DNA of 64,000 nt from an uncultured Gemmatimonadales bacterium. GTDB lineage: Bacteria; Gemmatimonadota; Gemmatimonadetes; Longimicrobiales; RSA9. A program made the position numbers and the translations under genes. The stretch is taken from contig CAVUKA010000003.1 in NCBI GenBank assembly GCA_963741945.1, positions 1-64,000 on the forward strand, written 5' to 3'. Below are positions 24,432 through 41,237 of this stretch, one piece after another. How positions within the stretch are numbered: the stretch's first letter is position 1; every line of letters begins with the position of its first letter. Under the pieces are notes generated by a model. It saw only the letters and a program-made list of their open reading frames with translations. It was not told the origin of the DNA and did no database searches.

Positions 24432-27236
24432 CTAGCCGTCCATCAATCCCCCGAACACCACCCCGAACGTCCCCCACGTCTGCCCCCGGTGCTGGGGGCG
24501 GAATCCGATGAGCACCACGCGTCCCTTGCCGTGCTCGACGCTCACCATGGCGGCTTTCTCGGAGAGGACGTCCTCGCCGATGAGCCAGCCGCTCTGGAGG
24601 ATGTTCTCCTGGTCGGTGCCCTCGCCCGCTTCGGGGAAGGTGATGACGCGGTGGACGCGCTCGCTGTGGGCGCCGGGGACGGTCTCGTACGCGCGGCTGT
24701 CGCCGGTGAAGAGGACGAGGGCGCGGGCGGGCATGCCGTACACGAGTGGGTCGGTTGTGTCCACGTTCACGCGCAGCGTGGAGCCGGGGCACCAGAACTC
24801 CTTCGATGACAGGCCGTCGTTCACGACTCGGACGGGGAGGTTGAAGCCGTCAATGGCGAGGTCGCCGGCCTGGCCGAAGGTCATGAGGGTGCCGCCGTCG
24901 CGGACGAACTGCTCGAGGGCCTTCACCCCCTCGTCGCCGAAGCCGCTGCGGTACTCGGGCGGCGTGTTCTCCAGGTAGCGGGCGTAGCGGCCGGCGAGCT
25001 GGCCCGGCGCCGAGCCCGGGCCCTTCATCATCACCGGGTTGTCCGACGGCAGGATGATGACGTCGAAATCCTTGATCAGGCTGCCCTTCCTGATCCGCGC
25101 GTCGTCCAGCCCCTGGTACGGGAAGGCGAACCGCTCCAGCACCAGCCGCGTCCACCCCTCGTCCATGTTCCCGCCGTAATACCGGTGGTACAGCCCGATC
25201 CGCTGCCGCTCCACGGGCGAGGTGGAAGCGGGCTCGACGTCCAGCGCCTCGAACGAGACGTGCGTTTCCGCCGCGACCGCACGCAGCGCCGCGCCGTCGG
25301 CGTTGCCCGGAATCAGGAAGTCCCCGGTGTTGAAAAGTGTTCCTTCGTGTGCTTCGTTCCCTTCGTGTGAACCGCTGTTGGAAGGTGAGGCGCCCGCTGA
25401 GCTAGCCCCCGCCCGCCGAACCTGAACGCCCCGGTCAAGGAGCGTGTTCACCGCCAGGTACGCCGCGTTCTCCCGCCCGTCGAGCCGATAGCCGTAAGAG
25501 CCCGCGGTGACCGATCCGGCTGGCTCGATGCCAGTGGTGACGTAAGGAAGCCGCTCCACGACGCGGACCTCGAAGTCGGGCTGGATCACGCTGGTGCCCA
25601 CGGTGACCGGGGTCCCGACGGGGACCGCTTCCACCCCCATGAACTCCGCCATGTCGTGCGTCGCCAGGTCGTACGGCCGGATGGGGCTGCCGTCCCGGTC
25701 CCGGGTGAACGCGTTGTCCGGGTAGAACGTGCGCCCCAGGAGCCAGCGGACCAGCCCGCGCTTGGGCTGCGCCATGGAGACCACCCACGAGCCGCCGCCG
25801 TAGACGCGGCCCTCGTGGACGAAGTCGGACGTCGCCCGGCGGACCTCGATCCCCTGCTGGAGCAGCTTGTTGACGATCTCGACGGCGGTGAGGCGGTCGT
25901 GCTGGTCGGCGGGGATGATGAAGGCGGCGAGCGGGCCCGTGGGGCCGTTGTGGACGGGGGCGGCGTCGTCGCCCCGCTCGACCTGGCGGCGGGCCTTGAG
26001 GTAGTGGTTCTCGAGGACGGTGCGGCGGTTCTTCGCCGCCATGTCGAGGAGGGCGAGCGACGCGATCTTCTGCATGTCCACGATGTCGCGCACGGTCCAC
26101 CAGCCGCCCGGCCAAGGGTCAGGGAACGTGTTCTGGGCGCGGTACTCGGGGATGCCGTGCTCGGGGTCGGCCTCGAGCTGGTCCGGCTGGACGAAGATCG
26201 GCCACGCCAGGTTGGCGCTGGCGGACTCGGTGAGCATGCCGGCGATGTTGTGGAAGGGCGTGATCCAGTGGAAGCCGAAGTGGCCCCAGCCGCCGTAGAT
26301 GGCGGCGTTGGCGACGCCGCTCTTGCCGGCCGACTCCTCGTCGGCGGCGATGCGGGCGCCCCACCAGCTCATCTCGCGCCAGACCAGCGGGTCACCGTCG
26401 GGGCGGATCGGCTCGGCGTACGGCGGCACGTACATGCGCGGGCCGTACGCGCCCATCTGGTGGTGGTCCACGAACGCTTCGGGCACCCAGTCGCGGAACA
26501 GGATCTCGCCCGTCCACACGCTCTCGGCCGTGTTCTGCTGGAACGCGTCCCGGTTGTTGTCGTGGCCGATGTAGGGATGGTAGAGCCACGGCAGGCTGGC
26601 GCCCTGCCACTCCGTCCCCGCCGTCTTCCGCACCCAGTCCGCCACCATGGTGGTGCCGTCCGGGTTGAGCGACGGGAACAGGATGGCCACGTCCTGGTCC
26701 AGGATCCGGCGCATGGCGTCGTCGTCGCGGGTGGCCATGTCATGGACCAGCTCCGCGGCGGTCTGCGTGGCCGCCACCTCGGTGGCGTGCAGCCCGTAGC
26801 TCTGGGCGACGATGGCCCGGCCGTTCTCGATGGCGTTCGCGATCTCGACGTCCGAGTGCCCCCGGGGGTCGGCGAGGACCAGGTTGAGCTGCCGCAGCTC
26901 CTCCAGCCGCGCCAGGTTCTCCGGCGACGAGACGAAGAGCACCAGGAACGGCTTCCCCAGCGTGCTCGGGCCCATCTCCCTCAGCGCCACGCGCGGGCTG
27001 CGCTCGGCCACCAGCTCGTAGTACGCCGTCAGCTGGCTCCAGTCGGCAAGCTTGCCGTCGGCGCCCATGCGGAAGCCGAAGTACTCTTCGGGCGACGGAA
27101 CGGCGGGCGCGGCGCTCGCGGGCTGCGCGGATCCGGGGGGCGCGGCCTGCTGTGCGGCCGCCGTGGTGGCGAGGGAGCTGGCCAGCGCCAGCAGGACGAA
27201 GACGAAAAGCCCGGGCACGCGGCGAGGACGTCGCAT
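24432..27236 (-). CDS. Secreted M14-family zinc carboxypeptidase-like protein with C-terminal GATase-like domain
   Basis: Signal peptide, GLHATE (HxxE), NPDG, HDNNRD, DHHQMG, MDEGWTR, IGFRPQHRGQ. Confidence 0.9.
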   Translation of the reverse strand: MRRPRRVPGLFVFVLLALASSLATTAAAQQAAPPGSAQPASAAPAVPSPEEYFGFRMGADGKLADWSQLTAYYELVAERSPRVALREMGPSTLGKPFLVLFVSSPENLARLEELRQLNLVLADPRGHSDVEIANAIENGRAIVAQSYGLHATEVAATQTAAELVHDMATRDDDAMRRILDQDVAILFPSLNPDGTTMVADWVRKTAGTEWQGASLPWLYHPYIGHDNNRDAFQQNTAESVWTGEILFRDWVPEAFVDHHQMGAYGPRMYVPPYAEPIRPDGDPLVWREMSWWGARIAADEESAGKSGVANAAIYGGWGHFGFHWITPFHNIAGMLTESASANLAWPIFVQPDQLEADPEHGIPEYRAQNTFPDPWPGGWWTVRDIVDMQKIASLALLDMAAKNRRTVLENHYLKARRQVERGDDAAPVHNGPTGPLAAFIIPADQHDRLTAVEIVNKLLQQGIEVRRATSDFVHEGRVYGGGSWVVSMAQPKRGLVRWLLGRTFYPDNAFTRDRDGSPIRPYDLATHDMAEFMGVEAVPVGTPVTVGTSVIQPDFEVRVVERLPYVTTGIEPAGSVTAGSYGYRLDGRENAAYLAVNTLLDRGVQVRRAGASSAGASPSNSGSHEGNEAHEGTLFNTGDFLIPGNADGAALRAVAAETHVSFEALDVEPASTSPVERQRIGLYHRYYGGNMDEGWTRLVLERFAFPYQGLDDARIRKGSLIKDFDVIILPSDNPVMMKGPGSAPGQLAGRYARYLENTPPEYRSGFGDEGVKALEQFVRDGGTLMTFGQAGDLAIDGFNLPVRVVNDGLSSKEFWCPGSTLRVNVDTTDPLVYGMPARALVLFTGDSRAYETVPGAHSERVHRVITFPEAGEGTDQENILQSGWLIGEDVLSEKAAMVSVEHGKGRVVLIGFRPQHRGQTWGTFGVVFGGLMDG

Positions 27237-27420: not shown

Positions 27421-27683
27421 GCACTGTTCGCAGAGGATCACCCAGCGGTGGTGCCCTCCCAAACCGCTGGGCGATCGTCTGCACTATGCGCCGGGAATCA
27501 CCCAGCGGTGGTGCATTCTCCAACGAATGGGCGATCGTCTGCACTATGCGCGGGGAATCACCCAGCGGTGGTGCCCTCCCAAACCGCTGGGCGATCGTCT
27601 GCACTATGCGCCGGGAATCACCCAGCGGTGGTGCATTCTCCAACGAATGGGCGATCGTCTGCACTATGCGCGGGGAATCGCCC
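27421..27683. repeat. Intergenic 60-bp tandem array with alternating A/B units (ABAB, 120-bp exact period)
   Basis: Conserved TGGGCGATCGTCTGCACTATGCGC(C/G)GGGAATCACCCAGCGGTGGTGC with variable 13-mers CCTCCCAAACCGC / ATTCTCCAACGAA. Confidence 0.95.
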
Positions 27684-29794: not shown

Positions 29795-29883
29795 CCGACC
29801 GGCTGAAGCGGCGACCCGGGTCCGCTCGGGCCCTCAGCGCCCGACGCGGGCTCGGCCCGGGCCGCACCCGTCCGCCCTGCGGG

Positions 29884-30372
29884 CTATCCCCGCCGCACCG
29901 CCTCCGGCAGCGCAGGCAGCCAGCCGACTTCCACCACCGCCCAGATCCCCAGCAGGATCGCTTCGGCGGCGTCGTGCCGGAGGGAGGTGGGGCGCGGAGC
30001 GCGGGACCAGTCGATGACGCGGCGGGCGAGGGTGTCGGCGTGCGCCTTGGCGGCGGCGCCGGTGCGGCGGTCACGGGGAAGGAGGAGCGGCTCGCGCCAG
30101 TCGGCGGCGTGGACCTGGATCACCTCCACACCCCGGCGCCCGGCCTCGCGGAGCCACGGATCGGCTGCGGTCCCCCCTCCCTCGACGGCCAGGAACCGGA
30201 CGGGCGCCATGTCGTTCAGGACCCGCCAGGCCGCGCGGCGGAGGCGGGCGACGGAGCCGTAGTTCCTGGAGCGGTACCAGCGGAGGCGGCCGTCGTCGCC
30301 GTAGAACGCCAGACCCGCCCGGACGCCCGCATCGATGGCGAGCAGGCCTCCGGGGGGATCGCGTTCAGCCAC
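29884..30372 (-). CDS. Hypothetical protein with RuvC/RNase H-like fold motifs
   Basis: LLAIDAGVRAGLA, LAVEG and HDAAEAILLG match the spacing of RuvC acidic motifs. Confidence 0.65.
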   Translation of the reverse strand: MAERDPPGGLLAIDAGVRAGLAFYGDDGRLRWYRSRNYGSVARLRRAAWRVLNDMAPVRFLAVEGGGTAADPWLREAGRRGVEVIQVHAADWREPLLLPRDRRTGAAAKAHADTLARRVIDWSRAPRPTSLRHDAAEAILLGIWAVVEVGWLPALPEAVRRG

Positions 30373-30392
30373 CTGCTACCGGCTGCCGTTGA

Positions 30393-31355
30393 TCAGTGGC
30401 TCCCGAGCCACTCCAGCACGGTCCGGTCGAACGCTTCCGGCCGCTCGATCATGCTGAGGTGCCCGGCGTCGTCGATCTCCTCGAGCGTGGCGTTCGGGAT
30501 CCGCTCGGCCCCCTCCTCGAACACGCGCTCCGGGAAGCCGGGGTGGAGGTACGGATTCGGGATCAGGCCGTCGTCCTCGCCGTACACGATGAGCGTGGGC
30601 TGCTCGATCCGATCGAGGTACGGCGTCGTGGGCTCGTCCAGCATGGCGCCGACGCTCTTCACCACCGCGTCGGCGAACAGGTCGAACTCATCGGTCTTCG
30701 CGAGCCTCACCCGCTCCTCGACCATCCACTCGAGGCGGTCGTGCCAGTCGTTGAAGTTGAGCGCCAGGTTGCGACGGATGGCATCCTCGGGTGTCTTCCG
30801 GATCGCCTCGATGCTGTAGACGCCGCGCAGCCACTTCCCTTCTCCCGGCAGGAAGGACTCGATCCCCGCCGGGTCCACCAGCACGAGCCGGTCCACCGCT
30901 TCAGGATACTGGAGGGCGGTGATCATGGCGATCTGCCCGCCCATGGACTGGCCGACCAGCGTGACGTGCTCGAGGCCGAGCTCGTCGATCAGGTCGCGGA
31001 TGGTGGCCGCCTGGAAGCTGAGGGAGTAGTCGTACTCGGCGCTCTTCTCCGAGCGGCCGTAGCCCGGGAGGTCGATGGCGATGACACGGTAATGCTCCGC
31101 GAGCGCCGGGATGTTGTAGCGCCAGAACCCCAGGTTGGAGGCGAGGCCGTGGATCAGGATGAGCGTCTGCGGCCCGGTGCCCACGTCCACGTACGCGACC
31201 GTCGGATCGTCGAGGGCGTAGCGGACGGGGAAGCCGTAGTCGAGCTCCGAGAAGGGGAGCGGGGCGGCGTCGCGGTACTCGAACCCGCCGATGCACCCGG
31301 TGAGCGCGGCGAGGGCGGCCAGCGCGAAGAACGCGCGTGTCTTGGGCGTGCTCAT
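30393..31355 (-). CDS. Lipoprotein alpha/beta hydrolase (esterase/lipase-like)
   Basis: Lipobox LTGC, LIHGL, DLPGYG, GQSMGG, GEDDGLI, AGH; TGATG overlap with the upstream gene. Confidence 0.92.
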   Translation of the reverse strand: MSTPKTRAFFALAALAALTGCIGGFEYRDAAPLPFSELDYGFPVRYALDDPTVAYVDVGTGPQTLILIHGLASNLGFWRYNIPALAEHYRVIAIDLPGYGRSEKSAEYDYSLSFQAATIRDLIDELGLEHVTLVGQSMGGQIAMITALQYPEAVDRLVLVDPAGIESFLPGEGKWLRGVYSIEAIRKTPEDAIRRNLALNFNDWHDRLEWMVEERVRLAKTDEFDLFADAVVKSVGAMLDEPTTPYLDRIEQPTLIVYGEDDGLIPNPYLHPGFPERVFEEGAERIPNATLEEIDDAGHLSMIERPEAFDRTVLEWLGSH

Positions 31356-32923
31356 CAGAACATCAGCCAGCTGAGGGTGAAGAAGGAGACCCACGGGTTC
31401 CGGGGCCGTGCGCCGGGCACCGTCACACCCGGTGCGTCGTAGAAGTCGCCCAGCATCAGGTACGCGGTGGAGAAGCCGGCGGTGAGGAAAACACCGATGT
31501 TGTACTTCGCTTCGAAGTTCACCTCGGTCCCCATGTAGTTGCCGCCCCCCGTGGGCTGCGTGTTGGAGATCGCCGAAGCCACGCCGACTTTCGTGTTGAG
31601 CCGGTTCGGGATCCAGTCCCGGGCCACGTTCACCGCCCCGCCCGTCACGCCGAAGCCCATGTTGGAGATGTCGTGCACGGCGGAGTAGTAGCGGTTCACC
31701 ACCTGCGGGTCCGGGAAGAGGAGGAACGCACGGTGGGAGCTGTAGATCCCCACGGGAGAGCCCCAGACGTTGCCCGTGATGACGCTGCTCACCCTGCCAT
31801 CGCTGACGCCGTTGCCATCGCCGGTGGTGGCAATGAGCTCGGCCCACGCCTTGTCGTTCACCGTCGCGCCGTAGCGGTAGGCCAGCGACGCGTTGGCGGC
31901 CACGCCCAGGATGTCGGCGCCGTGGACGAAGTCGCCGGCGGCGAGCGTGTCCACCACGCCCACGTTGGCGATGGCGAAGGCGTCCGCCCACCAGCGACCG
32001 GTGGCGAACTCGCGGTTCCACGCCGCGCGGCCGCCGATCCAGCCGATGTCGGCGTGGTAGCGGCCGTCGATGTTCAGGGTGGTGGCGCCGTTGTAGCCGG
32101 GGAGGAGGCTGGTGAGCCCCTGCCCCAGCACGGAAATCCCGCCGGCGCCCTCCGCCCTGTCCCGGAGGTACCAGGCGTCGAGGCCGAGCTCGAGGTGCGG
32201 CGAGACGCGGGAGTCCACGTCGCCCATGAGGAGGATGACGTCGTCATCGCGGGCGATGAGGTTCTCCCACAACTGGTAAGCGCCCACGCGTCCGCGTACA
32301 CCCGGCCGCAGCGACCCGAAGACGTTCACGCCCACGGCGTTGGTGCCCCAGAACGCGAGCTTGTAGCCGCTGGTCTGGGCGGTGGTGAGCGTGATGTTGT
32401 GCGGGTCGTACGTGTTGTCGTACAGCCGCTGCATCCCGATCACCGCGTTCCACGGCGCGTTCTTCGGGTGCAGGTCCACGTTGGCCATCAGCGTCTGGAG
32501 ATTGACCTGCGCGACGTTGATGGAGCCGCCCCGGTTCCCGCCCACGCCGTACGCCTGGTCGCCCCAGGTGTAGTCGATCTTGAACATGAGCCGGAACGTG
32601 GCGAGCCCGTCCAGGATGGCCGGGCGATAGATCAGGTAGGGGACGAAGCGCTGCTCCACGTACTGCGCCGTCCGGGCCACTGTCTCGGTGGAGTTGGGCC
32701 CGAACAATCGCCCGATCACCTGCCCCTGCAGGAGGTCGTTGGTGGGCGTCACGTTGGAAGCCGTGGCGCGGGTGAATGAGTAGCCGATGAACGTCCACTC
32801 CTTCGGAACCGAATCCCTCGCCGCCGCGACCGTGTCCATGGCCGCGTGCAGCCCCGTGATCTGCGCGCCCGCTCCCGTTGCGCAGCCCAGCGCGAGCGCT
32901 GCGGCCGTCATCACCCGTCTCAT
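31355..32923 (-). CDS. Putative outer-membrane beta-barrel protein of unknown function
   Basis: Signal peptide, amphipathic aromatic-rich strands, C-terminal ...FFTLSWLMF. Confidence 0.75.
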   Translation of the reverse strand: MRRVMTAAALALGCATGAGAQITGLHAAMDTVAAARDSVPKEWTFIGYSFTRATASNVTPTNDLLQGQVIGRLFGPNSTETVARTAQYVEQRFVPYLIYRPAILDGLATFRLMFKIDYTWGDQAYGVGGNRGGSINVAQVNLQTLMANVDLHPKNAPWNAVIGMQRLYDNTYDPHNITLTTAQTSGYKLAFWGTNAVGVNVFGSLRPGVRGRVGAYQLWENLIARDDDVILLMGDVDSRVSPHLELGLDAWYLRDRAEGAGGISVLGQGLTSLLPGYNGATTLNIDGRYHADIGWIGGRAAWNREFATGRWWADAFAIANVGVVDTLAAGDFVHGADILGVAANASLAYRYGATVNDKAWAELIATTGDGNGVSDGRVSSVITGNVWGSPVGIYSSHRAFLLFPDPQVVNRYYSAVHDISNMGFGVTGGAVNVARDWIPNRLNTKVGVASAISNTQPTGGGNYMGTEVNFEAKYNIGVFLTAGFSTAYLMLGDFYDAPGVTVPGARPRNPWVSFFTLSWLMF

Positions 32924-32957
32924 GTGCCGGCTCCTTCGTCAGGCCCGGGGAGAACGA

Positions 32958-32980
32958 GGAGCCGGCCCCGCGCCGGCTCC
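32958..32980 (-). other. Intra-operon GC stem-loop
   Basis: GGAGCCGGC (32958-32966) / GCCGGCTCC (32972-32980). Confidence 0.6.
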
Positions 32981-32993
32981 CCTTCGCCTCGAA

Positions 32994-33506
32994 TCAGTTC
33001 CTGCGATCGTAGTTCTGGGTCCAGTACGGGCCGGTGGGATTCCCGCCGACCGTGGTGCTGCCGAAACCGCCGGAGACGGTGGGCGGATTCACGCCCGCGA
33101 GCGCCGGCTCCACCTGGATGACCTCATACTTCATCGTGTTGCCGCTCACCTGGAAGATCCCCTCGGACGTCACGGCCGTGGGGGTGGCCTGATTCGCCGT
33201 GATCGACCGGACCTGCCCCTCCGGCTGCGTGCCGGCCACGTAGGTGCCCGTGAGGGTGATCGGCTGAGCCGTGCCGCCATAATACTGGACCACCGTGTAC
33301 GTTCCGTTCTCGTTGAACGTGGCGATGATGCTGTCCGTGAAGAACGGGCTCGCGGCCAGACCCGGCGCCACGTCGGCGCCCTTGGAGACCCACGTGCCCA
33401 CCAGTTCGTCCACCTGGTTCTCGTTGCCCGTGGAGTCCTCGCTCCCGCACGCCGCCACACCGAGGCCGGCCACCACCAGCAACGCCAGAATTGCCTTCTT
33501 CCTCAT
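32994..33506 (-). CDS. Lipoprotein, beta-rich (lipocalin-like)
   Basis: Lipobox VAAC, LVGTW motif, TFNENGTY; GGAGG RBS. Confidence 0.85.
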   Translation of the reverse strand: MRKKAILALLVVAGLGVAACGSEDSTGNENQVDELVGTWVSKGADVAPGLAASPFFTDSIIATFNENGTYTVVQYYGGTAQPITLTGTYVAGTQPEGQVRSITANQATPTAVTSEGIFQVSGNTMKYEVIQVEPALAGVNPPTVSGGFGSTTVGGNPTGPYWTQNYDRRN

Positions 33507-33561
33507 TTGGCTCCTCCCATGGTTTGATATCCGGCGACGGCGTGCGCCGACGCCCCTCGAC

Positions 33562-33990
33562 TCACGTCTTTCGTGGCATGACCACCGACTCCCCCTCCGC
33601 CACCACCTTCCCGTCCTGGTTCACGCAGCGCGTAGCCAGCGTGACCCGGTTCTTCTCCCGGTCCAGCGCCGTGACCTCCGCGCGCGCGGTCACCGTGTCG
33701 CCGAACATCACCGGCGCCGTGAACCGGAGGCTCTGCGAGACGTAGATGACGCCGGGCCCCGGCAGCTTCATCCCGATCACCGTGGAGATGAACGCAGCCG
33801 TGAGGATCCCGTGGGCGATGCGCTGGCCGAAGCGCGACTGCGCCGCGGCCACCGCGTCCACGTGGACGGGGTTGAAGTCGCCCGTGATCCCGGCGAACCC
33901 GTACACGTCGCTCTCCGAGACCGTCTTCGTGAACTCCGCCGCCTGCCCCACCTCCAGCTCGCCGATGGTGAGGCCGTTCATCCGATCCAT
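33562..33990 (-). CDS. MaoC/PhaJ-family (R)-specific enoyl-CoA hydratase
   Basis: FAGITGDFNPVHVD hydratase motif, RIAHG, LPGPG, QSLRFTAPV. Confidence 0.92.
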   Translation of the reverse strand: MDRMNGLTIGELEVGQAAEFTKTVSESDVYGFAGITGDFNPVHVDAVAAAQSRFGQRIAHGILTAAFISTVIGMKLPGPGVIYVSQSLRFTAPVMFGDTVTARAEVTALDREKNRVTLATRCVNQDGKVVAEGESVVMPRKT

Positions 33991-33992
33991 GC

Positions 33993-35528
33993 TCACCCCC
34001 TTCCTGCGTCCGCGCGCGCCCGCTCGCGCAACGCCTTCTTCAGCACCTTGCCGCTGTCCCCGCGGGGCAGCTCGTCCAGGAACTCCACCTGCTTCGGCAT
34101 CTTGTACTTCGCCAGCTGACCCGCGCAGTACTCGACCACCTCTTCGGCGGTGAGCGACGACCCGGGCTCCACCACCACGTACGCCCGCCCGACCTCGCCC
34201 CACTTCGCGTCCGGCACCCCGATCACCGCCACTTCGCGGATGGCGGGGTGCGTGCGGAGGAATTGCTCCACCTCGGCCGGGTAGACGTTCTCCCCGCCGC
34301 TCTTGTACATGTCCTTCTTCCGGTCCACGACGTAGAAGAAGCCCTCGGCGTCGCGGCGGACCAGGTCGCCGGTGTGGAACCAGCCGTCGCGGATGGCGTC
34401 GGCGGTGGCTTCCGGGTTCCGCCAGTAGCCGGGCGTGCAGACGGGGCCGCGGAGCACCAGCTCGCCCACCCGGTCGTCGCCCAGCGGACGGTCGTCGTCA
34501 TCCACGACGCGGGCGTCGACGTAGAAGTTGGGGAAGCCGATGGAGCCGATCTTCCGCTCGGCGTGCTCCTCGTTCAGGCTGAACACGTTGGGCCCGAACT
34601 CCGTGAGACCGTAGCCCTGGCGGATCGGGACGCCCCGGCCGTGCCAGAGCCGGATCAGCTCCAGCGGCATCGGCTCGCCCCCCACGATGGCGTAGCGCAC
34701 GCGGGCGAAGTCCGTGGCGTCGAACTTGGGCGAGCGGCGCAGCATCTCCATGATCGTGGGGAGCCCGAAGAGGATGGTGACGCCCTCGTCGTCCACCAGC
34801 TCCAGGACCCGGTCCGCGTCGAACTTCGGCAGCAGGATCAGCTTCCCGCCCCGGTGCAGGAACGGCGTGGTGAGGACGTTCCAGCCGCCCGTGTGGAAGA
34901 ACGGCGTGTACGTCAGCGTGACGTCGCTCTGCACCAGGTTCAGCCGGAGCGTGGTGTTCACGCTGTTCCAGAAGAGCATGCCGTTCGTGATGAGCGCGCC
35001 CTTCGGCTTGCCCGTGGTGCCGGACGTGTAGAGCAGCATGCACGGCGTGTCGAAGTCGCCGGGCACCGGCACGGGCTCCGCCGGCAGCGTCTCGTCGGCC
35101 ACGCTCGCGGCCCAGCCGCCGTCGCCTTCGAACGGGAGCCGGCGGGACGGGAGCGCGGCGTCGGCGATGGCGGCCACCACGCCGTCGTACTGGCGCTGGT
35201 GGATCAGCGCGGCGGGCTCCGCGTCGGCGAGGATCCACTCCAGCTCCCGGGGCGCGAGCCGATAGTTCAGCGGCAGGAGGATGGCGCCGAGCTTCTGACA
35301 GGCGAAGAGGAGCAGCACGTACTCCGGCTCGTTCATGGACAGCACGGCCAGCCGGTCCCCCTCGCCCACGCCGAGCTCGTCCGCCAGGAAGCGCGCGCCG
35401 CGGTCGATCATCCGGCGGCACTGGGCGTACGTGAAGCGCCGGCCCGTGGCGTCATCCTGGAGCGCGACGGCGTCGGGGCTGTACTCCGCCCACTTCTCGA
35501 ACCAGTCCACTCGCGAATCGATCTCCAT
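33993..35528 (-). CDS. Acyl-CoA synthetase (AMP-forming, fatty-acid-CoA ligase family)
   Basis: YTSGTTGKPKG, GYGLTE, GWFHTGD, DRKKDMYKSGGENVYPAEVE, GKVLK. Confidence 0.95.
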   Translation of the reverse strand: MEIDSRVDWFEKWAEYSPDAVALQDDATGRRFTYAQCRRMIDRGARFLADELGVGEGDRLAVLSMNEPEYVLLLFACQKLGAILLPLNYRLAPRELEWILADAEPAALIHQRQYDGVVAAIADAALPSRRLPFEGDGGWAASVADETLPAEPVPVPGDFDTPCMLLYTSGTTGKPKGALITNGMLFWNSVNTTLRLNLVQSDVTLTYTPFFHTGGWNVLTTPFLHRGGKLILLPKFDADRVLELVDDEGVTILFGLPTIMEMLRRSPKFDATDFARVRYAIVGGEPMPLELIRLWHGRGVPIRQGYGLTEFGPNVFSLNEEHAERKIGSIGFPNFYVDARVVDDDDRPLGDDRVGELVLRGPVCTPGYWRNPEATADAIRDGWFHTGDLVRRDAEGFFYVVDRKKDMYKSGGENVYPAEVEQFLRTHPAIREVAVIGVPDAKWGEVGRAYVVVEPGSSLTAEEVVEYCAGQLAKYKMPKQVEFLDELPRGDSGKVLKKALRERARADAGRG

Positions 35529-35540
35529 GCTCCCCTCTCC

Positions 35541-37088
35541 CTACGACGACGCGCCGGGCGACGACGGGCCGGCCGACCCGGTCGCCCCGGCCGCGACCAC
35601 GGCGGGCGCGCCCTCACCCGAGCCGACGCCCGCCCCGCCCGGCCCCACCACCAGCCCGATCCCCCCCACCACCAGCGACGCCGCAATGGCGCACGTGGCG
35701 GGCACGGCCGGGTTGTTGTGGTACATGGTCACCTGGCCGTAGTACATGCCGAAGTGCACCACGATGGCCGTGGCCGAAGCCGCCCAGATCCACCCTTTCG
35801 CCATGCTCTTCGTGAAGATGCCGAGGAGGATCGGGACGAACGTGGCCGCGAACAGGCCGTAGACGCCGTTCTGCGCGAAGATCGCCACGCTGAGCGACGG
35901 CGCCACGATCTGCTTCCACGACAGCGCCACGGTCACGGGCGCCAGCGCGATGAGGAACCAGCGGGCGTAGACCAGCGAGCGCGCTTTCCACGCCGGGTCG
36001 TCGCGCCGGCCGCCGCCGGTGAGGTGGCGGAGGAAGTCGTTGGCGAAGATGGAGCTGAGCGCCACCAGGATCGCTTCCATGGTGGAGAAGCCCGCCGCCA
36101 GGAGCCCGAGCACCACCACGGCGCGGGTGAACGAGCTGAACTCCGTCACCATGTACGTGGCCATGACGGTGTCGGGGGGGATCGTTTCGCCCGCGAACGT
36201 GAGGCGCGCGAACAGTCCCGTGACGAGCACCGCGAAGAAGAGCCCGGCCACCACCATGGCCGTGGCCAGGTAGCGGTTCACGTCCTTCTCGCTCCGCAGG
36301 TAGAGCGACTTGGAGATGATGTGCGGCTGCAGGATGATGGCGAGCCCCACCACGAAATTGGCCACGAACACTTCGAACCAGTCGCGGAAGAGCAGGCTGG
36401 TGGGGTTCACCGGGTCCGCGTAGTGCGGGCCGACGGCGGCGAGGCGCTGGAAGAAGCCGCTGATGCCGTGGTCGAAGAATTTCGCCCCGGACCCGAGGAA
36501 GAGCAGCGCCACCACGATCATGATGCCGGCCTGCATGGTGTTCGTGAGCACGTGCGTGCCCGCGCCGCCGAGCAGGATGTACGTGAACGTGAACGCCACC
36601 ACCGAGAGGAGCGCCACCCAGGTGGGGAGCGCCAGCGCCTGCGCCAGGACGAGCGTGAGGCCCACCACGATCAACACCAGGAAGCTGACCTGGAGCAGGC
36701 TGAGCACGGCGAACCAGACGCTCAGCCGCTTCTCGCCGAAGCGGTCCCCGATCCACTGCGGCACCGTGAGCACGCGCGTCCGGTCCCCGATGCGGCGGAA
36801 GCTCTTCGAGAAGACCACGAGGCCGAGGAACATCCCGAGCGGGGCGGCCACCGCGTAGCCGAGCACGCCAGACCAGCCGTACAGGTAGATGAGGCCCGGG
36901 TTGATGACGAACGTGGCCGCACTGGTCAGGCTCGCCGCCAGGCTCAGGCCCACGGCCACCGGGCTCACCTGACGCGACCCCACCGAATAGCTCTCCATGG
37001 TGGACGCGCGCCGCGCGCGCCACGCGATGCCGGCCACGAAGACCCCGTAGACCGCAACCAGCACCCACGACCAGAACGATTCGCTCAT
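35541..37088 (-). CDS. Sodium:solute symporter (SSF) family protein
   Basis: Multi-TM; SLTSAATFVINPG, TVPQWIGDRF, LLAAGFST; ATGA overlap with the FabH-like gene. Confidence 0.9.
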   Translation of the reverse strand: MSESFWSWVLVAVYGVFVAGIAWRARRASTMESYSVGSRQVSPVAVGLSLAASLTSAATFVINPGLIYLYGWSGVLGYAVAAPLGMFLGLVVFSKSFRRIGDRTRVLTVPQWIGDRFGEKRLSVWFAVLSLLQVSFLVLIVVGLTLVLAQALALPTWVALLSVVAFTFTYILLGGAGTHVLTNTMQAGIMIVVALLFLGSGAKFFDHGISGFFQRLAAVGPHYADPVNPTSLLFRDWFEVFVANFVVGLAIILQPHIISKSLYLRSEKDVNRYLATAMVVAGLFFAVLVTGLFARLTFAGETIPPDTVMATYMVTEFSSFTRAVVVLGLLAAGFSTMEAILVALSSIFANDFLRHLTGGGRRDDPAWKARSLVYARWFLIALAPVTVALSWKQIVAPSLSVAIFAQNGVYGLFAATFVPILLGIFTKSMAKGWIWAASATAIVVHFGMYYGQVTMYHNNPAVPATCAIAASLVVGGIGLVVGPGGAGVGSGEGAPAVVAAGATGSAGPSSPGASS

Positions 37089-38125
37089 GTGTCGTAGCCC
37101 CATTCCAGGGCCAGGGCGGCCATGGCCATTCCGCCGCCCGAGCCCATGAGCACCACCAGGTCGCCCGCCTTCAGCAGGTGGCGGTCGGCGGCATCCGCCA
37201 TGGCCATGGGGATGCACGCGCTCCCCGTGTACGCGAACCGGTCCATCACGTTGTGCGAACGGTCCCGCGGCACGCCCAGGATGTCCAGCGTCTCGTTGAT
37301 GCTGTTGATGTTGATCTGCGTGAAGAAGTAGCGGGCGACGTCGCCCGGCTCTTTCCCGATCTTCCCCAGCACGCTCCGGATCAGACGCGGCCAGTGCGTC
37401 GGGTTCGTCTCCGCCGGGAACTTCTTCGCGAAGCGCAGCAGGTGGTCCTTCCGCTCCAGCGCTTCCGGCGTCACGGGCATGAACGTGCCGCCGGCGTAGA
37501 TGCCCATGTAGTCGTGGAACGAGCCCTCGGCGTACAGCTCACTGGCCAGGATACCCGCGCCGGGGCGCGCGCCCCGCTCCCGGTCGGAGGCGGAGCCCAC
37601 GGCGCTCACCACGGCCGCGCCGGCGCCATCGGCGAACAGCGTGGCGAGCTTGTAGTCGTCGAAATCGAGGTACTTGCTCATGCCATACGCCCCGGCAATG
37701 AGCACGTGCCGGTACGATGCGTCCGCCACGATGTACTTCCACGCCAGGTCCGCGATGGTGACGAAACCCGCGCACGCCGTGTTCACATCGAACGTGCCCG
37801 CGTTGACGGCGCCCAGCTTGTGCTGCACCACCGAGGCCGTGGACGGCGAGATGTAGTCCGGCGTGTCCGTGGCCACCACCAGCAGATCCAGCTCCGCCGG
37901 CCCGATCCCCGCTTCCTCCAGCGCGTCCCGCGCCGCCGGCACCACCAGGTCCGACGTGGCCTGGTCCGCCGCCATGAAATGCCGCGTCTCGATGTTCCGG
38001 TTCGCCCGCAGGAACGCGTCCACGTCCATCCCGTAGCGCGCGTTGAACTCCACGTTCGGGATCGCCCGACCCGGGGCGCACAGGCCCGTCCCCGTCAACA
38101 CCGCGCGTCTCGTGCTCTCGCTCAT
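37085..38125 (-). CDS. FabH/KAS III-fold enzyme with atypical active site (Cys kept; His->Thr, Asn->Tyr)
   Basis: ATDTPDY, NTACAGF, LFADGAGA, FFTQIN (for VPHQAN), FAYTGSAC (for HGNTSAAS), GSGGG. Confidence 0.9.
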   Translation of the reverse strand: MSESTRRAVLTGTGLCAPGRAIPNVEFNARYGMDVDAFLRANRNIETRHFMAADQATSDLVVPAARDALEEAGIGPAELDLLVVATDTPDYISPSTASVVQHKLGAVNAGTFDVNTACAGFVTIADLAWKYIVADASYRHVLIAGAYGMSKYLDFDDYKLATLFADGAGAAVVSAVGSASDRERGARPGAGILASELYAEGSFHDYMGIYAGGTFMPVTPEALERKDHLLRFAKKFPAETNPTHWPRLIRSVLGKIGKEPGDVARYFFTQININSINETLDILGVPRDRSHNVMDRFAYTGSACIPMAMADAADRHLLKAGDLVVLMGSGGGMAMAALALEWGYDT

Positions 38126-38132
38126 GCCCCGC

Positions 38133-38741
38133 TCACTCCGCATCCGGACGGAGCCGCAGCCCGTCATGGATGAACTTCCTCAGGCTCTCCAGCGCTTCCT
38201 CCGGCGGCTCACGGTCGTCCCACACCACCCACCGCATCCCCATGAAGTGCGCCGCCCCCATCAGCGCGTACGCCACCGTCGCCGGATCCAGGCGACGGAT
38301 CTCACCCGCCTCCATCGCCGCGCCCAGCCCCTTCGCGTACCCCTCCGCCAGCCGCTCGTAGTACCAGCGGAAAAGATCCGGGTCGATGAACTGGCTCTCG
38401 AACACGATCCGGTACAGGTCCCGGTGCTCCGACGCGAAGCGCAGGAAGCTCCGCAGACCCGCCTCCTCCACCGCCAACCGCCCCACCACGCCCGCCACGT
38501 CACGGGCAATGGCGAGACGGAGGCGATGGCTCAGAGAGCGCACCAGCTCGCTGAATACCTCGTCCTTGCCGTGGAAGTAGAGGTAGAACGTGCCCTGCCC
38601 CACCCCGGCCTGCGTCGTGATCCCCGCCACCGACGTGGCGTGGTAGCCGGCGCTCCCGAACAGCGCCTCCGCGGCGTCCAGCAGCTTCTGCCGCGTCGCT
38701 TCGCCGCGCGCCGTCCGGGGTTTCCGTGAGGCCCTGATCAT
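38133..38741 (-). CDS. TetR/AcrR-family transcriptional regulator
   Basis: TRQKLLDAAEALF...TSVAGITTQAGVGQGTFYLYFHGK. Confidence 0.95.
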   Translation of the reverse strand: MIRASRKPRTARGEATRQKLLDAAEALFGSAGYHATSVAGITTQAGVGQGTFYLYFHGKDEVFSELVRSLSHRLRLAIARDVAGVVGRLAVEEAGLRSFLRFASEHRDLYRIVFESQFIDPDLFRWYYERLAEGYAKGLGAAMEAGEIRRLDPATVAYALMGAAHFMGMRWVVWDDREPPEEALESLRKFIHDGLRLRPDAE

Positions 38742-38781
38742 GGGCTCTGGCCCTCCATTCGTGGCAGACCGGGCACCGCGT

Positions 38782-38808
38782 ACCTGACACCTGAATCGGG
38801 TGTCAGGT
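38782..38808. promoter_or_regulatory. Palindromic operator, probably bound by the adjacent TetR
   Basis: ACCTGACACC-N7-GGTGTCAGGT with perfect 10-bp arms, 40 bp upstream of tetR. Confidence 0.75.
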
Positions 38809-38810
38809 TA

Positions 38811-38839
38811 ATGGTGCGCGGTACCCCGGACGATGTCAA
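38811..38839 (-). promoter_or_regulatory. sigma70-type promoter of the tetR operon
   Basis: Minus-strand TTGACA (38839-38834), 17-bp spacer, CACCAT (38816-38811). The predicted start falls inside the palindrome. Confidence 0.6.
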
Positions 38840-39006
38840 TGCCCGCGCCGGCGGAAGCGGTGCCGTGATGCGCTGCCGGGGCGGGAGGAAGGCGAGCCGC
38901 CCGAGGGCACTTTTGACCCGGTGGGGGCGGGCGGGTACTCTCCGGAATGCGACACATCCGACTCGCCGCCGAGGATCACCACCGCAAGGAACTGGACGCG
39001 ACGACG

Positions 39007-40095
39007 ATGCCGAGACGCCCATCCGGGGGAAGCCGATCCCCTGCCCTTTCGGTGCTGGCGGGCCCCGACGCCCTCCGGATCCTGCGCGATCGCGGTCTGC
39101 GCGCGGAAGACGTGGACGTGGTGCCGGGTGCGGGCGGCGGCCCGAAGTGGCTGGTGCTGGAGGCGCTGGACCGCTTTCTCTTCGGCGAGTTCCTGCAGCA
39201 ACCGCGCGAGCGCCCGCTGCACCTGATCGGCTCCTCGATCGGCGCGTGGCGGCTGGCGTGCCTGGCGCAGCGGGACCCGGTGGCCGCCATCGGCCGGCTG
39301 AAGGATGCGTACCTGGGGCAGGGTTACAACGAGAAGCCGACGCCTGCCGAAGTGAGCGAGGAGAGCACCCGCATCCTGGACCGGCTCCTCGGGGAGCATG
39401 GGGCGGAGGAGATCCTGTCGCACCCATGGGCGCGGCTTCACGTCATCACGGCGGAGTGCCGGGGCGCCGCGGCGAGCGAGTGGCTGCCGATGCTGGGGCT
39501 GGCCATGGCCACGGCCGCCGCGGCGAACATGGTCAGCCGCCGGGGGCTCGCGCTCCAGATCCGACGCGTGATCTTCCACACTGCGGGGGACGCCAGCCCT
39601 TTCCGCGCGCTGCGGGACTTCCCCACTCGCCACGTCCGCCTCACCCGGGGCAATCTGCGCCCGGCGCTTCTCGCGTCGGGCTCCATTCCCCTCGTGCTGG
39701 AGGGCGTGCGGATCCCGGGCGCGGAGCGGACGGTGTACCGCGACGGCGGGATCGTGGATTACCACCCCGACTTCGAATTCGGGCCGGGCGAAGGGCTGGT
39801 CCTCTATCCCCATTTCTTCCGCCACATCGTGCCGGGCTGGTTCGACAAGGCGCTGCCCTGGCGACGCGGCCACCCGCGCAACTTCCGGCGCGCCGTGATC
39901 CTCGCCCCCAGCGCGGATTTCGTGGCGGGTCTGCCGGGCGGGGCGATCCCGGACCGCAAGGACTTCTACCGCATGAGCGAGCCCGAGCGCCTCGCCGCCT
40001 GGAACGCGGCCGTGGACGCCGGCGAAGCGCTGGCCGAGGAGCTCAGGACGCTGATCGAGATGGGCGACATCGCGGGCGCGGCCCGGCCACTCTGA
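39007..40095 (+). CDS. Patatin-like phospholipase/esterase domain protein
   Basis: GAGGGPKW glycine loop, GSSIG nucleophile, LASGSIP, DGG. Confidence 0.85.
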   Translation: MPRRPSGGSRSPALSVLAGPDALRILRDRGLRAEDVDVVPGAGGGPKWLVLEALDRFLFGEFLQQPRERPLHLIGSSIGAWRLACLAQRDPVAAIGRLKDAYLGQGYNEKPTPAEVSEESTRILDRLLGEHGAEEILSHPWARLHVITAECRGAAASEWLPMLGLAMATAAAANMVSRRGLALQIRRVIFHTAGDASPFRALRDFPTRHVRLTRGNLRPALLASGSIPLVLEGVRIPGAERTVYRDGGIVDYHPDFEFGPGEGLVLYPHFFRHIVPGWFDKALPWRRGHPRNFRRAVILAPSADFVAGLPGGAIPDRKDFYRMSEPERLAAWNAAVDAGEALAEELRTLIEMGDIAGAARPL

Positions 40096-40220: not shown

Positions 40221-41237
40221 ATGAAAGTGGCAGCGATCCTGAGCCTCATTGCCGGCGTGGGGGCCGTTGCGGGACTGTTCCTGCTCGCCGACCCGGGCCA
40301 CATCTGGTCGCTGATCCAGGACGTCGCCATCTGGCTCGTCCCGCTGGCGATTGCGCATTTCATCTTCATCCTGCTCACCACGCTGGCGTGGCGCAGCCTG
40401 CTGGTCGCCCAGGAGATGGACCGGCCGTTCCACGAGCTGTTCCGCATGCGCTGGATCGGCGACGCGCTTTCCGCGATGACGCCGTTCGGCGTGGCGGACG
40501 GGGAGGCGGTGAGGGCGTACCTGCAGGCGAAGGAGACGGAGCTGGATGGTCCGCGAGTCGCCGCGGTGGTGATCGTCGAGCTGACGGCACGTCTGCTCTC
40601 GCTGGTGCTCTTCATCCTGGTGGGGATGATCCTGCTGGCGCTGCACGGCGGCAAGCACGTCTGGCTCACCACTGGCGGCGCGACGGCACTGCTCATCGTG
40701 GTGCTGGGTGCCTACGTGTACGGGCAGCGTCACGACTGGCTGCACAGGCTTGCGCGGCTGATCGCGCGGAGGAGCAAGAGCGAGCGGTGGCAGGAGCTGG
40801 CCGGCGACACCGATGCCGTGAACGAGCATCTCGAGCCCATCTACCGGGAGCACGGCGCGTTCATCCGCTGCACCGCCTGGCACACGTCGGCCTGGGTGTT
40901 CTCCGCCACGGAGATGCTCTTCCTCTTCTGGATCCTGGGCGAGCCAGTGGGCCCGGTGGAAGCGCTCATCTTCGAGGCCATCGGGCAGGCGGCGAAGAAT
41001 GCAGGCTTCTTTCTCCCCGCCGGGCTGGGCGCGCAGGAGGGCGGCTACTACCTGGCTGCCGAAGCCATCGGGAAGAGCGCGTCCATCGGGCTGGCCGTGG
41101 CCATCATCAAGCGCATCCGCGACTTCATCTTCGGTGTCCCGGCGCTGCTGCTCTGGCAGCAGCACGCGAGGAAGGAGAAGAAGGAGAAGGAGAAGGAGGA
41201 GAAGGAAAGCGCATCGGACCGGGGCGCCACGGCCTGA
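40221..41237 (+). CDS. Lysylphosphatidylglycerol-synthase TM / flippase-like (HpnL-like) membrane protein
   Basis: Multi-[30 protein letters not shown]. Confidence 0.8.

Follow-up and report, generated by a model that had tools for sequence, protein, structure and literature searches.

What is an enzyme of the FabH type doing in a run of genes for a symporter, a coenzyme A (CoA) ligase and outer-membrane proteins? The question is raised by a stretch of 64,000 nucleotides, hereafter the window, which opens contig CAVUKA010000003.1 of an uncultured Gemmatimonadales bacterium (assembly GCA_963741945.1). Eight genes on its minus strand encode a TetR-family regulator, a KAS III (FabH)-like protein of the thiolase fold, a sodium:solute symporter (SSF), an AMP-forming acyl-CoA ligase, a MaoC hydratase, a lipoprotein, an outer-membrane beta-barrel and a second lipoprotein carrying an alpha/beta-hydrolase domain. 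An earlier interpretation made from the letters alone (the sequence-only reading) took them for a route of import and catabolism rather than fatty-acid synthesis. The explanation that we favor, with a probability of about 0.5, is that they form a TetR-controlled, envelope-spanning operon for the scavenging and catabolism of a carboxylic acid that is esterified outside the cell. Import and catabolism rather than synthesis is in itself likely, as the enzyme residues, the co-conservation and the channel and lipocalin-like folds agree, while the identification of the substrate as a 3-hydroxy-acid ester is tentative, a little short of an even bet.

An eight-gene unit and its conservation

The G+C content of the window is about 70%, so that open frames alone mean little, and genes were called from the periodicity of third-position G+C (GC3) together with Pfam and NCBIfam matches. 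By GC3 periodicity and Pfam, all eight co-oriented genes named in the sequence-only reading are real (Table 1). The tight coupling that it described was confirmed by direct reading of both junctions: an ATGA overlap at 37085-37088 joins the KAS III-like and SSF genes, and a TGATG at 31353-31357, with an overlap of one nucleotide (nt), joins the barrel gene to the hydrolase gene, which starts at 31355. The SSF and ligase genes are separated by 12 nt and the ligase and MaoC genes by 2 nt. The lipoprotein gene is flanked by gaps of 55 and 70 nt, the largest within the operon; a GC-rich hairpin with a stem of 9 to 11 bp lies in the 70-nt gap that precedes the barrel gene (32924-32993), and its folding energy is no better than that of shuffled sequences (z = -1.2). 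The start of the KAS III-like gene is uncertain, with ATG codons at 38167, 38143 and 38125, of which the last is the likely one. As had been claimed, Pfam detects no ACP (acyl carrier protein), FabD, FabG or polyketide synthase domain in the eight proteins.

The locus is a genuine eight-gene operon that is kept in several bacterial phyla. A profile-guided scan of species genomes, seeded with the barrel, gave 225 pattern matches, of which 170 were confirmed. The best 80 loci were retained from it and, with seven more added from genomes, make up 87 loci with a barrel. Fifty-nine of these, from Gemmatimonadota, Ignavibacteria, Balneolales and relatives, retain at least 6.5 kb upstream and at least 2.2 kb downstream and are called well-flanked. 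All 59 contain the KAS III-like gene, the ligase, the lipoprotein, the barrel and a hydrolase in one shared order. A symporter of the SSF or major facilitator superfamily (MFS) type is present in 57, MFS taking the place of SSF in seven, and every locus encodes a short-chain dehydrogenase/reductase (SDR) or a MaoC protein (54 SDR, 8 MaoC, 3 both). The regulator is of the MarR type in 55 loci and TetR in 3; outside Gemmatimonadota the operon usually begins with MarR and SDR genes. A thiolase gene is adjacent in 13 loci. Additional hydrolases (ABH2, the second hydrolase, in 35 of the 59, ABHc in 8) have no signal peptide, as judged by reading their N-termini, suggesting that an ester may survive into the cytoplasm.

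The unit persists as its sequences diverge: barrels that are merely about 40% identical still sit in the same operon. In a same-genus locus (L096) the eight genes are 79-92% identical to those of the window, with the exception of the lipoprotein at 67%. When genes flanking the operon in the window were used as tblastn queries, none was found in this 19.9-kb locus. Because the same-genus locus keeps the eight genes and none of the queried flanking genes, the eight genes form the unit.

A second scan, seeded with the KAS III-like protein in metagenomes, confirmed at least 528 of 596 pattern matches; 31 of the best 80 loci are well-flanked. The barrel is present in 24 of these 31, the ligase in 29 and a hydrolase in 28, and an SDR or MaoC gene is again found in all 31, both together in three. 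The seven loci without a barrel retain the KAS III-like gene with SDR, ligase and/or hydrolase genes. Two of the metagenome loci (L111 and L116) carry a divergent hydrolase-hydrolase-SDR block with no linked transporter, a layout shared by the shorter L113, outside the 31. In L170 an SSF gene, a hydrolase gene and a gene for a TonB-dependent receptor are set around the enzyme core; L154, also outside the 31, has a Liv-type ABC transporter with that core, and L062 an MFS protein. A constant set of enzymes with swapped importers constitutes a modular enzyme core, as expected for a catabolic module. The co-conservation on which the sequence-only reading was made to depend, by way of a neighborhood search, is thus strong in both genome and metagenome loci.

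The distribution of the cluster is patchy in the lineage of the window and denser elsewhere. Three of 41 close relatives have the barrel. Of 301 genomes sampled from the phylum it turned up in one, that of the window itself, and of 201 sampled from the class to which the Ignavibacteriota metagenome-assembled genome (MAG) of L049 belongs it turned up in 26. By their record titles the nearest loci belong to Gemmatimonadales and Gemmatimonadota, and the cluster is more frequent in the Ignavibacteria-Balneolales-Chlorobi group. This pattern could be due to lateral transfer.

The KAS III-like enzyme and its partners

Both KAS III domains are recognized in the FabH-like protein above their Pfam cut-offs (PF08545, 66.9 bits; PF08541, 73.7 bits). 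Against the NCBIfam model for fabH (TIGR00747) it scores about 163.8-164.1 bits, below the cut-off of 292.1, while two true FabH genes elsewhere in the same genome score 397.6 and 352.8 bits. HMMER alignments to solved FabH structures show which active-site residues differ. Cys132, in the motif NTACAGF, aligns with the catalytic Cys of FabH (Cys112 in E. coli), and the glycine-rich oxyanion loop GSGGG is kept. Thr283 occupies the position of the FabH His (HQAN replaced by TQIN) and Tyr313 that of the FabH Asn (GNTSAAS replaced by AYTGSAC). In FabH, according to the review PMC10054515, Cys112 takes the acyl group, His244 and Asn274 stabilize the enolate that results from decarboxylation of malonyl-ACP, and backbone amides make the oxyanion hole.

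These replacements characterize the family. The Cys, Thr and Tyr motifs are all kept in 65 of 65 cluster-linked genome homologues; among metagenome homologues Thr and Tyr are found in 80 of 80 and the Cys motif in 79, the pattern having missed it in L154. No invariant His is present anywhere in the family alignment. It follows from these residues that the enzyme can probably be acylated and that decarboxylative condensation is unlikely. Asn residues (N56 and N288) stand at the positions aligned with Arg36 and Arg249 of E. coli FabH, which we take, with that numbering, to serve in docking ACP. A housekeeping FabH was rejected as an identification, since His and Asn are replaced, the score falls under the fabH cut-off and the genome has two true FabH genes at other places; these facts also bear out the earlier view that the locus does not serve fatty-acid synthesis. 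In the Protein Atlas the protein falls among generic "synthase III" clusters, and the annotation "3-oxoacyl-ACP synthase III" that such genes carry is misleading.

The outer-membrane barrel is equally anonymous. It has 651 close homologues, for which every listed record is unnamed or "hypothetical", and its sequence identity stays near 60% as far away as Ignavibacteria and Chlorobi-like MAGs; 261 matches at E <= 0.001 were found among 1.84 billion cluster representatives. The window protein matches no Pfam family, and Alginate_exp (PF13372) is hit weakly by 8 of 45 relatives (best E 6.1e-05). The earlier note had asked for structure prediction and Foldseek comparison of this protein. The resulting model (pLDDT 87.7) matches the alginate exporter AlgE (3rbh) with an E value of 1.3e-21 and TM-scores of 0.56 (query) and 0.67 (target). 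Carboxylate porins of the Occ/OprD group, among them channels of the vanillate and benzoate type, are matched with E values of 1e-11 to 1e-14; sequence identities are 9-13%. The protein thus models as an 18-strand channel of the AlgE/OprD fold, a prediction that fits uptake. Its signal peptide in the window holds a lipobox-like LALGC; most homologues have an ordinary signal peptide ending in AQ.

In well-flanked genome loci the barrel is always paired with the smaller lipoprotein, all homologues of which have a lipobox. A model of the 170-residue protein (pLDDT 88.7) found no match in the Protein Data Bank with Foldseek at E <= 0.001, so that the same request met with a partial answer here: no confident Foldseek match, but lipocalins at the top of a VIA-align comparison, modestly above background. 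A Bacteroides lipocalin (4gzv) ranks first, with 106 residues aligned, Z 9.6 and a root-mean-square deviation of 4.2; Bacteroides and insect lipocalins head the comparison at Z 9.6 to 8.6, and many lipocalins lie at 7-9, where the usual background is 7-8. A lipocalin-like eight-strand barrel is therefore the likely but not firm prediction for its fold. The protein is a tandem two-domain fusion of about 310 residues in many Ignavibacteria (L008 and L049, at ~8.9-9.9 kb) and a single domain of about 170 residues elsewhere. Prediction of a complex between barrel residues 22-522 and lipoprotein residues 21-170 gave a score of 0.00, which speaks neither way.

The remaining proteins are of more familiar kinds. 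The conserved hydrolase carries the lipobox LTGC, has 4f0j as its best solved relative and falls below every NCBIfam cut-off. For the symporter, PF00474 is exceeded (129.1 bits, cut-off 22.8) while the panF equivalog is not reached (89.4 versus 328). The MaoC protein (PF01575, 92.2 bits, cut-off 27) has the (R)-specific enoyl-CoA hydratases 5cpg (5.6e-38) and 1iq6 (9.6e-31) as its closest solved structures, and on this evidence is assigned to the PhaJ type, in accord with the sequence-only reading. The SDR proteins of relatives lie barely above the FabG cut-offs (305.7 versus 296). The best solved relatives of the ligase are 8weu/8wev, described as "feruloyl-CoA synthetase" (412 bits), and FadD13 (334 bits). 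In two divergent versions of the operon (L092:11668-12690 and L093:7816-8838) a second thiolase-fold protein stands in the MaoC position; it passes the cut-off of PRK06840, "3-oxoacyl-ACP synthase" (~450 versus 315 bits), and seemingly has His at both triad positions.

Genome content bears on what these enzymes might feed. The 3-hydroxyacyl-CoA dehydrogenase domain of beta-oxidation, 3HCDH_N, is present in five of five carrier genomes and PhaC_N in none of the five. The carriers therefore appear not to make class I/II polyhydroxyalkanoate (PHA) of their own, and the two counts together fit scavenging of foreign material.

Control region and neighboring genes

The sequence-only reading placed the operon behind one promoter and operator. 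The 10-bp inverted repeat between tetR and the divergent patatin gene occurs once in the window and was matched in 0 of 100 shuffles. The exact palindrome is absent from the other loci searched; a shorter core, AACCTGA-N8-TCAGGTT, emerged on reading upstream regions and is common to those preceding tetR in all four Gemmatimonadota loci read (the window, L096, L004 and L006), each of which also has TTGAC at the same relative position. The shared core and the TTGAC box read as a phylogenetic footprint of a candidate promoter and operator. A generic scan for the sigma-70 consensus returned no promoter in 29800-39100. Copies of TetR that are 85-92% identical head the cluster in L004, L096 and L097.

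Table 1. Features of the operon and its control region in the window
Feature	Coordinates	Strand	Basis or detail
TetR-family regulator, 202 residues	38133-38741	minus	Pfam TetR_N, 56.2 bits
KAS III/FabH-like thiolase-fold protein	37085-38125 or 38167	minus	Pfam ACP_syn_III and ACP_syn_III_C
SSF sodium:solute symporter, inner membrane, 515 residues	35541-37088	minus	Pfam SSF, 129.1 bits
Acyl-CoA ligase (AMP-forming), 511 residues	33993-35528	minus	Pfam AMP-binding, 288.5 bits, and AMP-binding_C
MaoC, PhaJ-type (R)-specific enoyl-CoA hydratase by assignment, 142 residues	33562-33990	minus	Pfam MaoC_dehydratas, 92.2 bits
Lipoprotein, predicted lipocalin-like eight-strand barrel, 170 residues, lipobox Cys20	32994-33506	minus	no Pfam or NCBIfam match
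Outer-membrane beta-barrel, 522 residues, C-terminus WLMF	31355-32923	minus	no Pfam or NCBIfam match
Lipoprotein alpha/beta-hydrolase, 320 residues, serine motif GQSMGG	30393-31355	minus	Pfam Abhydrolase_1, 138.7 bits
Putative TetR operator: inverted repeat with perfect 10-bp arms, ACCTGACACC-N-GGTGTCAGGT	38783-38807	minus	in the region separating tetR from the patatin gene
-35-like box TTGACA, on the upstream side of the operator	38834-38839	minus	read in the sequence

The divergent gene for a patatin-like phospholipase (38947-40095) exists, as Pfam Patatin confirms, but is not part of the system as the sequence-only reading had it: it gave no tblastn match in L096 and is found in 0 of the 59 well-flanked loci. 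We rejected it as a member of the operon and regard it as a chance neighbor. The next gene (40221-41237) passes the cut-off for HpnL, a hopanoid-associated flippase-like membrane protein (TIGR03476, 201.3 versus 195.65 bits); it too occurs in 0 of the 59 loci and does not travel with the operon. On the other side, a co-oriented frame of 162 residues with high GC3 (29884-30372) begins 20 nt beyond the stop codon of the hydrolase gene; neither Pfam nor NCBIfam recognizes it, and it was not seen beside the operon in other loci. Further away, a tandem array at 27437-27683, with a unit of either 60 nt (4.1 copies, 86% matches) or 120 nt (2.1 copies, 99%), sits between a minus-strand gene ending at 27236 and a plus-strand frame from 27714.

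Proposed route, rival explanations and known systems

An explanation has to meet what was observed: the gene content and its co-conservation, the loss of the FabH His and Asn, the operator motif and the folds as predicted. Which way transport runs, what class the substrate belongs to and every reaction of the following route are what we infer. The lipocalin-like lipoprotein would bind an amphiphilic substrate at the outer membrane, and the dedicated AlgE/OprD-like channel of 18 strands would let it through. Its ester bonds would be trimmed in the envelope by the lipoprotein hydrolase, the acid carried over the inner membrane by the SSF symporter and the CoA thioester made by the ligase. An (R)-3-hydroxyacyl-CoA intermediate would then be converted to enoyl-CoA by the PhaJ-type MaoC protein or, in most other lineages, to 3-oxoacyl-CoA by the FabG-like SDR, and either product would enter ordinary beta-oxidation. 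The KAS III-like enzyme, with an acyl-accepting Cys only, would form an acyl-S-enzyme from the CoA-activated substrate and hand its acyl group on to some acceptor that is not malonyl-ACP.

The main argument for the substrate class comes from the SDR and MaoC proteins. (R)-3-hydroxyacyl thioesters are substrates of reductases of the FabG/PhaB type as well as of PhaJ/MaoC hydratases, and either alone would presumably suffice to join (R)-3-hydroxyacyl-CoA to beta-oxidation. Because one or the other is encoded in every well-flanked locus (all 59 from genomes and all 31 from metagenomes), the imported acid would be, or would yield, a 3-hydroxy acid; the same counts point to the (R)-3-hydroxyacyl-CoA step needed by the original suggestion of PHA or 3-hydroxybutyrate. 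We regard (R)-3-hydroxyalkanoates and small oligo-esters of them as the likeliest substrates, for instance fragments of PHA or other 3-hydroxy-acid esters from dead cells.

Several points weigh against this proposal. The protein that the barrel matches best in fold, AlgE, serves export. The hydrolase scores far below the cut-offs for PHA depolymerases (NF050089, 90.7 versus 300; TIGR02240, 66.8 versus 250.6), and its NF050089 match spans only the N-terminal half. The ligase, about 45% identical by eye to "feruloyl-CoA synthetase", points to aromatic acids over hydroxyalkanoates. The argument from SDR or MaoC rests on an assumed stereospecificity of the SDR. Among the alignments examined there is no solved relative that lacks both His and Asn, and the role assigned to the KAS III-like enzyme is guesswork. 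Finally, the operon is rare in its own phylum and may be a recent acquisition of uncertain use in this bacterium.

The evidence from the ligase leads directly to a different substrate. An esterase could free ferulate or coumarate from plant esters, a porin and a symporter import them, an Fcs-like ligase activate them, and MaoC, SDR and thiolase-fold enzymes beta-oxidize the side chain, much as in the hca system of Acinetobacter baylyi, where a CoA ligase, an esterase and a small repressor are grouped with channel and symporter. Of these genes, hcaE encodes the porin and hcaK the MFS transporter (bioRxiv 10.1101/2021.09.07.459243). Besides this resemblance in the layout of porin, transporter, ligase and regulator and the 412-bit match of the ligase to 8weu/8wev, vanillate and benzoate porins of the Occ/OprD group are also among the fold matches of the barrel, 55 of the 59 loci have a MarR gene at the head of the operon, and the MFS protein that replaces SSF in L062 has weak matches to aromatic-acid symporters. 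Against these stand the chemistry and the genomes: cinnamoyl-CoA needs both hydration and oxidation, yet MaoC and SDR occur together in just three of the 59 genome loci and three of the 31 metagenome loci; a crotonase-type hydratase/lyase (ECH) domain is absent from all eight genes; and ring-cleavage dioxygenases of the intradiol (PF00775) and LigB (PF02900) types were each found in 0 of 5 carriers, anaerobic ring reduction not having been searched. In our estimate such a route, for hydroxycinnamate or other aromatic-acid esters, is unlikely.

Two further explanations turn on the KAS III-like enzyme. In a salvage route, an imported fatty acid or hydroxy fatty acid would be converted to its CoA ester, and the Cys-only enzyme would act as a transacylase from acyl-CoA to ACP or another acceptor, feeding lipid or lipid A synthesis. 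The Asn residues at the two aligned Arg positions, where docking of ACP presumably takes place, speak against such a transfer, as do the absence of an ACP gene from every annotated locus and the presence of SDR, MaoC and thiolase partners that are better suited to breakdown. What commends it is that the KAS III-like gene and the ligase are the invariant enzyme pair, and that FabH can carry out its first half-reaction, from acyl-CoA to Cys, with no more than that Cys and an oxyanion hole (PMC10054515), both kept here as C132 and GSGGG; on balance we consider salvage quite unlikely. Biosynthesis with export, of an Ole or beta-lactone-like product or a surface lipid made by the KAS III-like enzyme, AMP-ligase, SDR and hydrolase and released through the AlgE-like barrel, is very improbable. 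Its appeal lies in the presence in most loci of all four OleABCD families (thiolase fold, alpha/beta-hydrolase, AMP-ligase and SDR) and in the exporter AlgE as best fold match. OleA, however, has a Cys-His-Asn active site and its partner OleB is a cytoplasmic hydrolase. Here His and Asn are absent and the conserved hydrolase has a lipoprotein signal, for which reason the Ole pathway itself was rejected; moreover, the inner-membrane partner is an SSF or MFS symporter and the variants have an ABC importer or a TonB-dependent receptor, all of them uptake devices, the ligase is a typical acyl-CoA synthetase, and the window version lacks an SDR.

Within the scavenging proposal, a bolder version can be framed in which the Cys-Thr-Tyr proteins are a new class of the thiolase fold. 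A CoA-activated dimer or oligomer of hydroxy acids would be thiolysed at its oxo-ester, the acyl group passing to Cys132 and from there to CoA, so that two (R)-3-hydroxyacyl-CoA would be gained per ATP and the energy of the ester bond kept; together with the lipocalin-like lipoprotein and the 18-strand channel this would make a dedicated system feeding on the polyester fragments of other cells. As a whole this version is speculative and unlikely.

No description of the operon was found in the literature searched, in keeping with the earlier remark that it was not recognized as a characterized pathway. Searches on KAS III-like acyltransferases without the triad, on uptake of 3-hydroxybutyrate oligomers, on the Ignavibacteria gene set and on the feruloyl-CoA synthetase structure gave nothing relevant, supplementary files being outside their scope. 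Operons for uptake and breakdown are a familiar kind; this one contains three parts without a described function, namely a widespread FabH-like family that lacks the condensation residues and occurs on at least 528 confirmed metagenome stretches, a family of outer-membrane barrels with some 60% identity from phylum to phylum that is unnamed or "hypothetical" in every record listed, and an obligatory lipocalin-like lipoprotein. If the substrates are hydroxyalkanoate esters, the operon would mark bacteria of sediment, sludge and soil that feed on the storage polyesters or lipid debris of others, and would be a source of new enzymes for bioplastic fragments.

Set beside known systems, the operon shares with each of them some parts and departs from each in others. 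With FabH, the KAS III-like protein has in common the thiolase fold, both Pfam domains, the NTAC(A/S)GF cysteine motif and the glycine-rich oxyanion loop; unlike FabH, it has Thr for His244, Tyr for Asn274 and Asn at the positions of Arg36 and Arg249, scores below the fabH cut-off and has no ACP or FabD partner. The predicted barrel has the size and topology of the 18-strand channels AlgE and Occ/OprD, from which it differs in its low identity (9-13%), its lipocalin-like lipoprotein partner and a sequence unusually conserved between phyla. OleABCD sets the same four protein superfamilies side by side, as do most of the loci, but here the thiolase-fold protein lacks His and Asn, the conserved hydrolase is an exported one, importers are encoded inside the operon, and the SDR, which the window does not have, is FabG-like. 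The hca locus of A. baylyi resembles the operon in grouping a specific channel of the outer membrane and a symporter of the inner one with a CoA ligase, an esterase and a small repressor, for uptake and CoA-dependent breakdown of an acid; the window differs in lacking the crotonase hydratase/lyase and in having the KAS III-like enzyme, the lipocalin-like lipoprotein and an unrelated barrel family. Classical utilization of polyhydroxybutyrate and other PHA, by extracellular PhaZ, 3-hydroxybutyrate-oligomer hydrolase, PhaJ, PhaB and PhaA, likewise employs an alpha/beta-hydrolase esterase and a PhaJ-type hydratase, with a FabG/PhaB-like SDR and an acetoacetyl-CoA-type thiolase finding their counterparts in relatives of the window. 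In the present operon, by contrast, the hydrolases fall far under the depolymerase cut-offs and show no substrate-binding domain, activation would proceed through an AMP-ligase and a KAS III-like step, and the outer membrane has machinery of its own.

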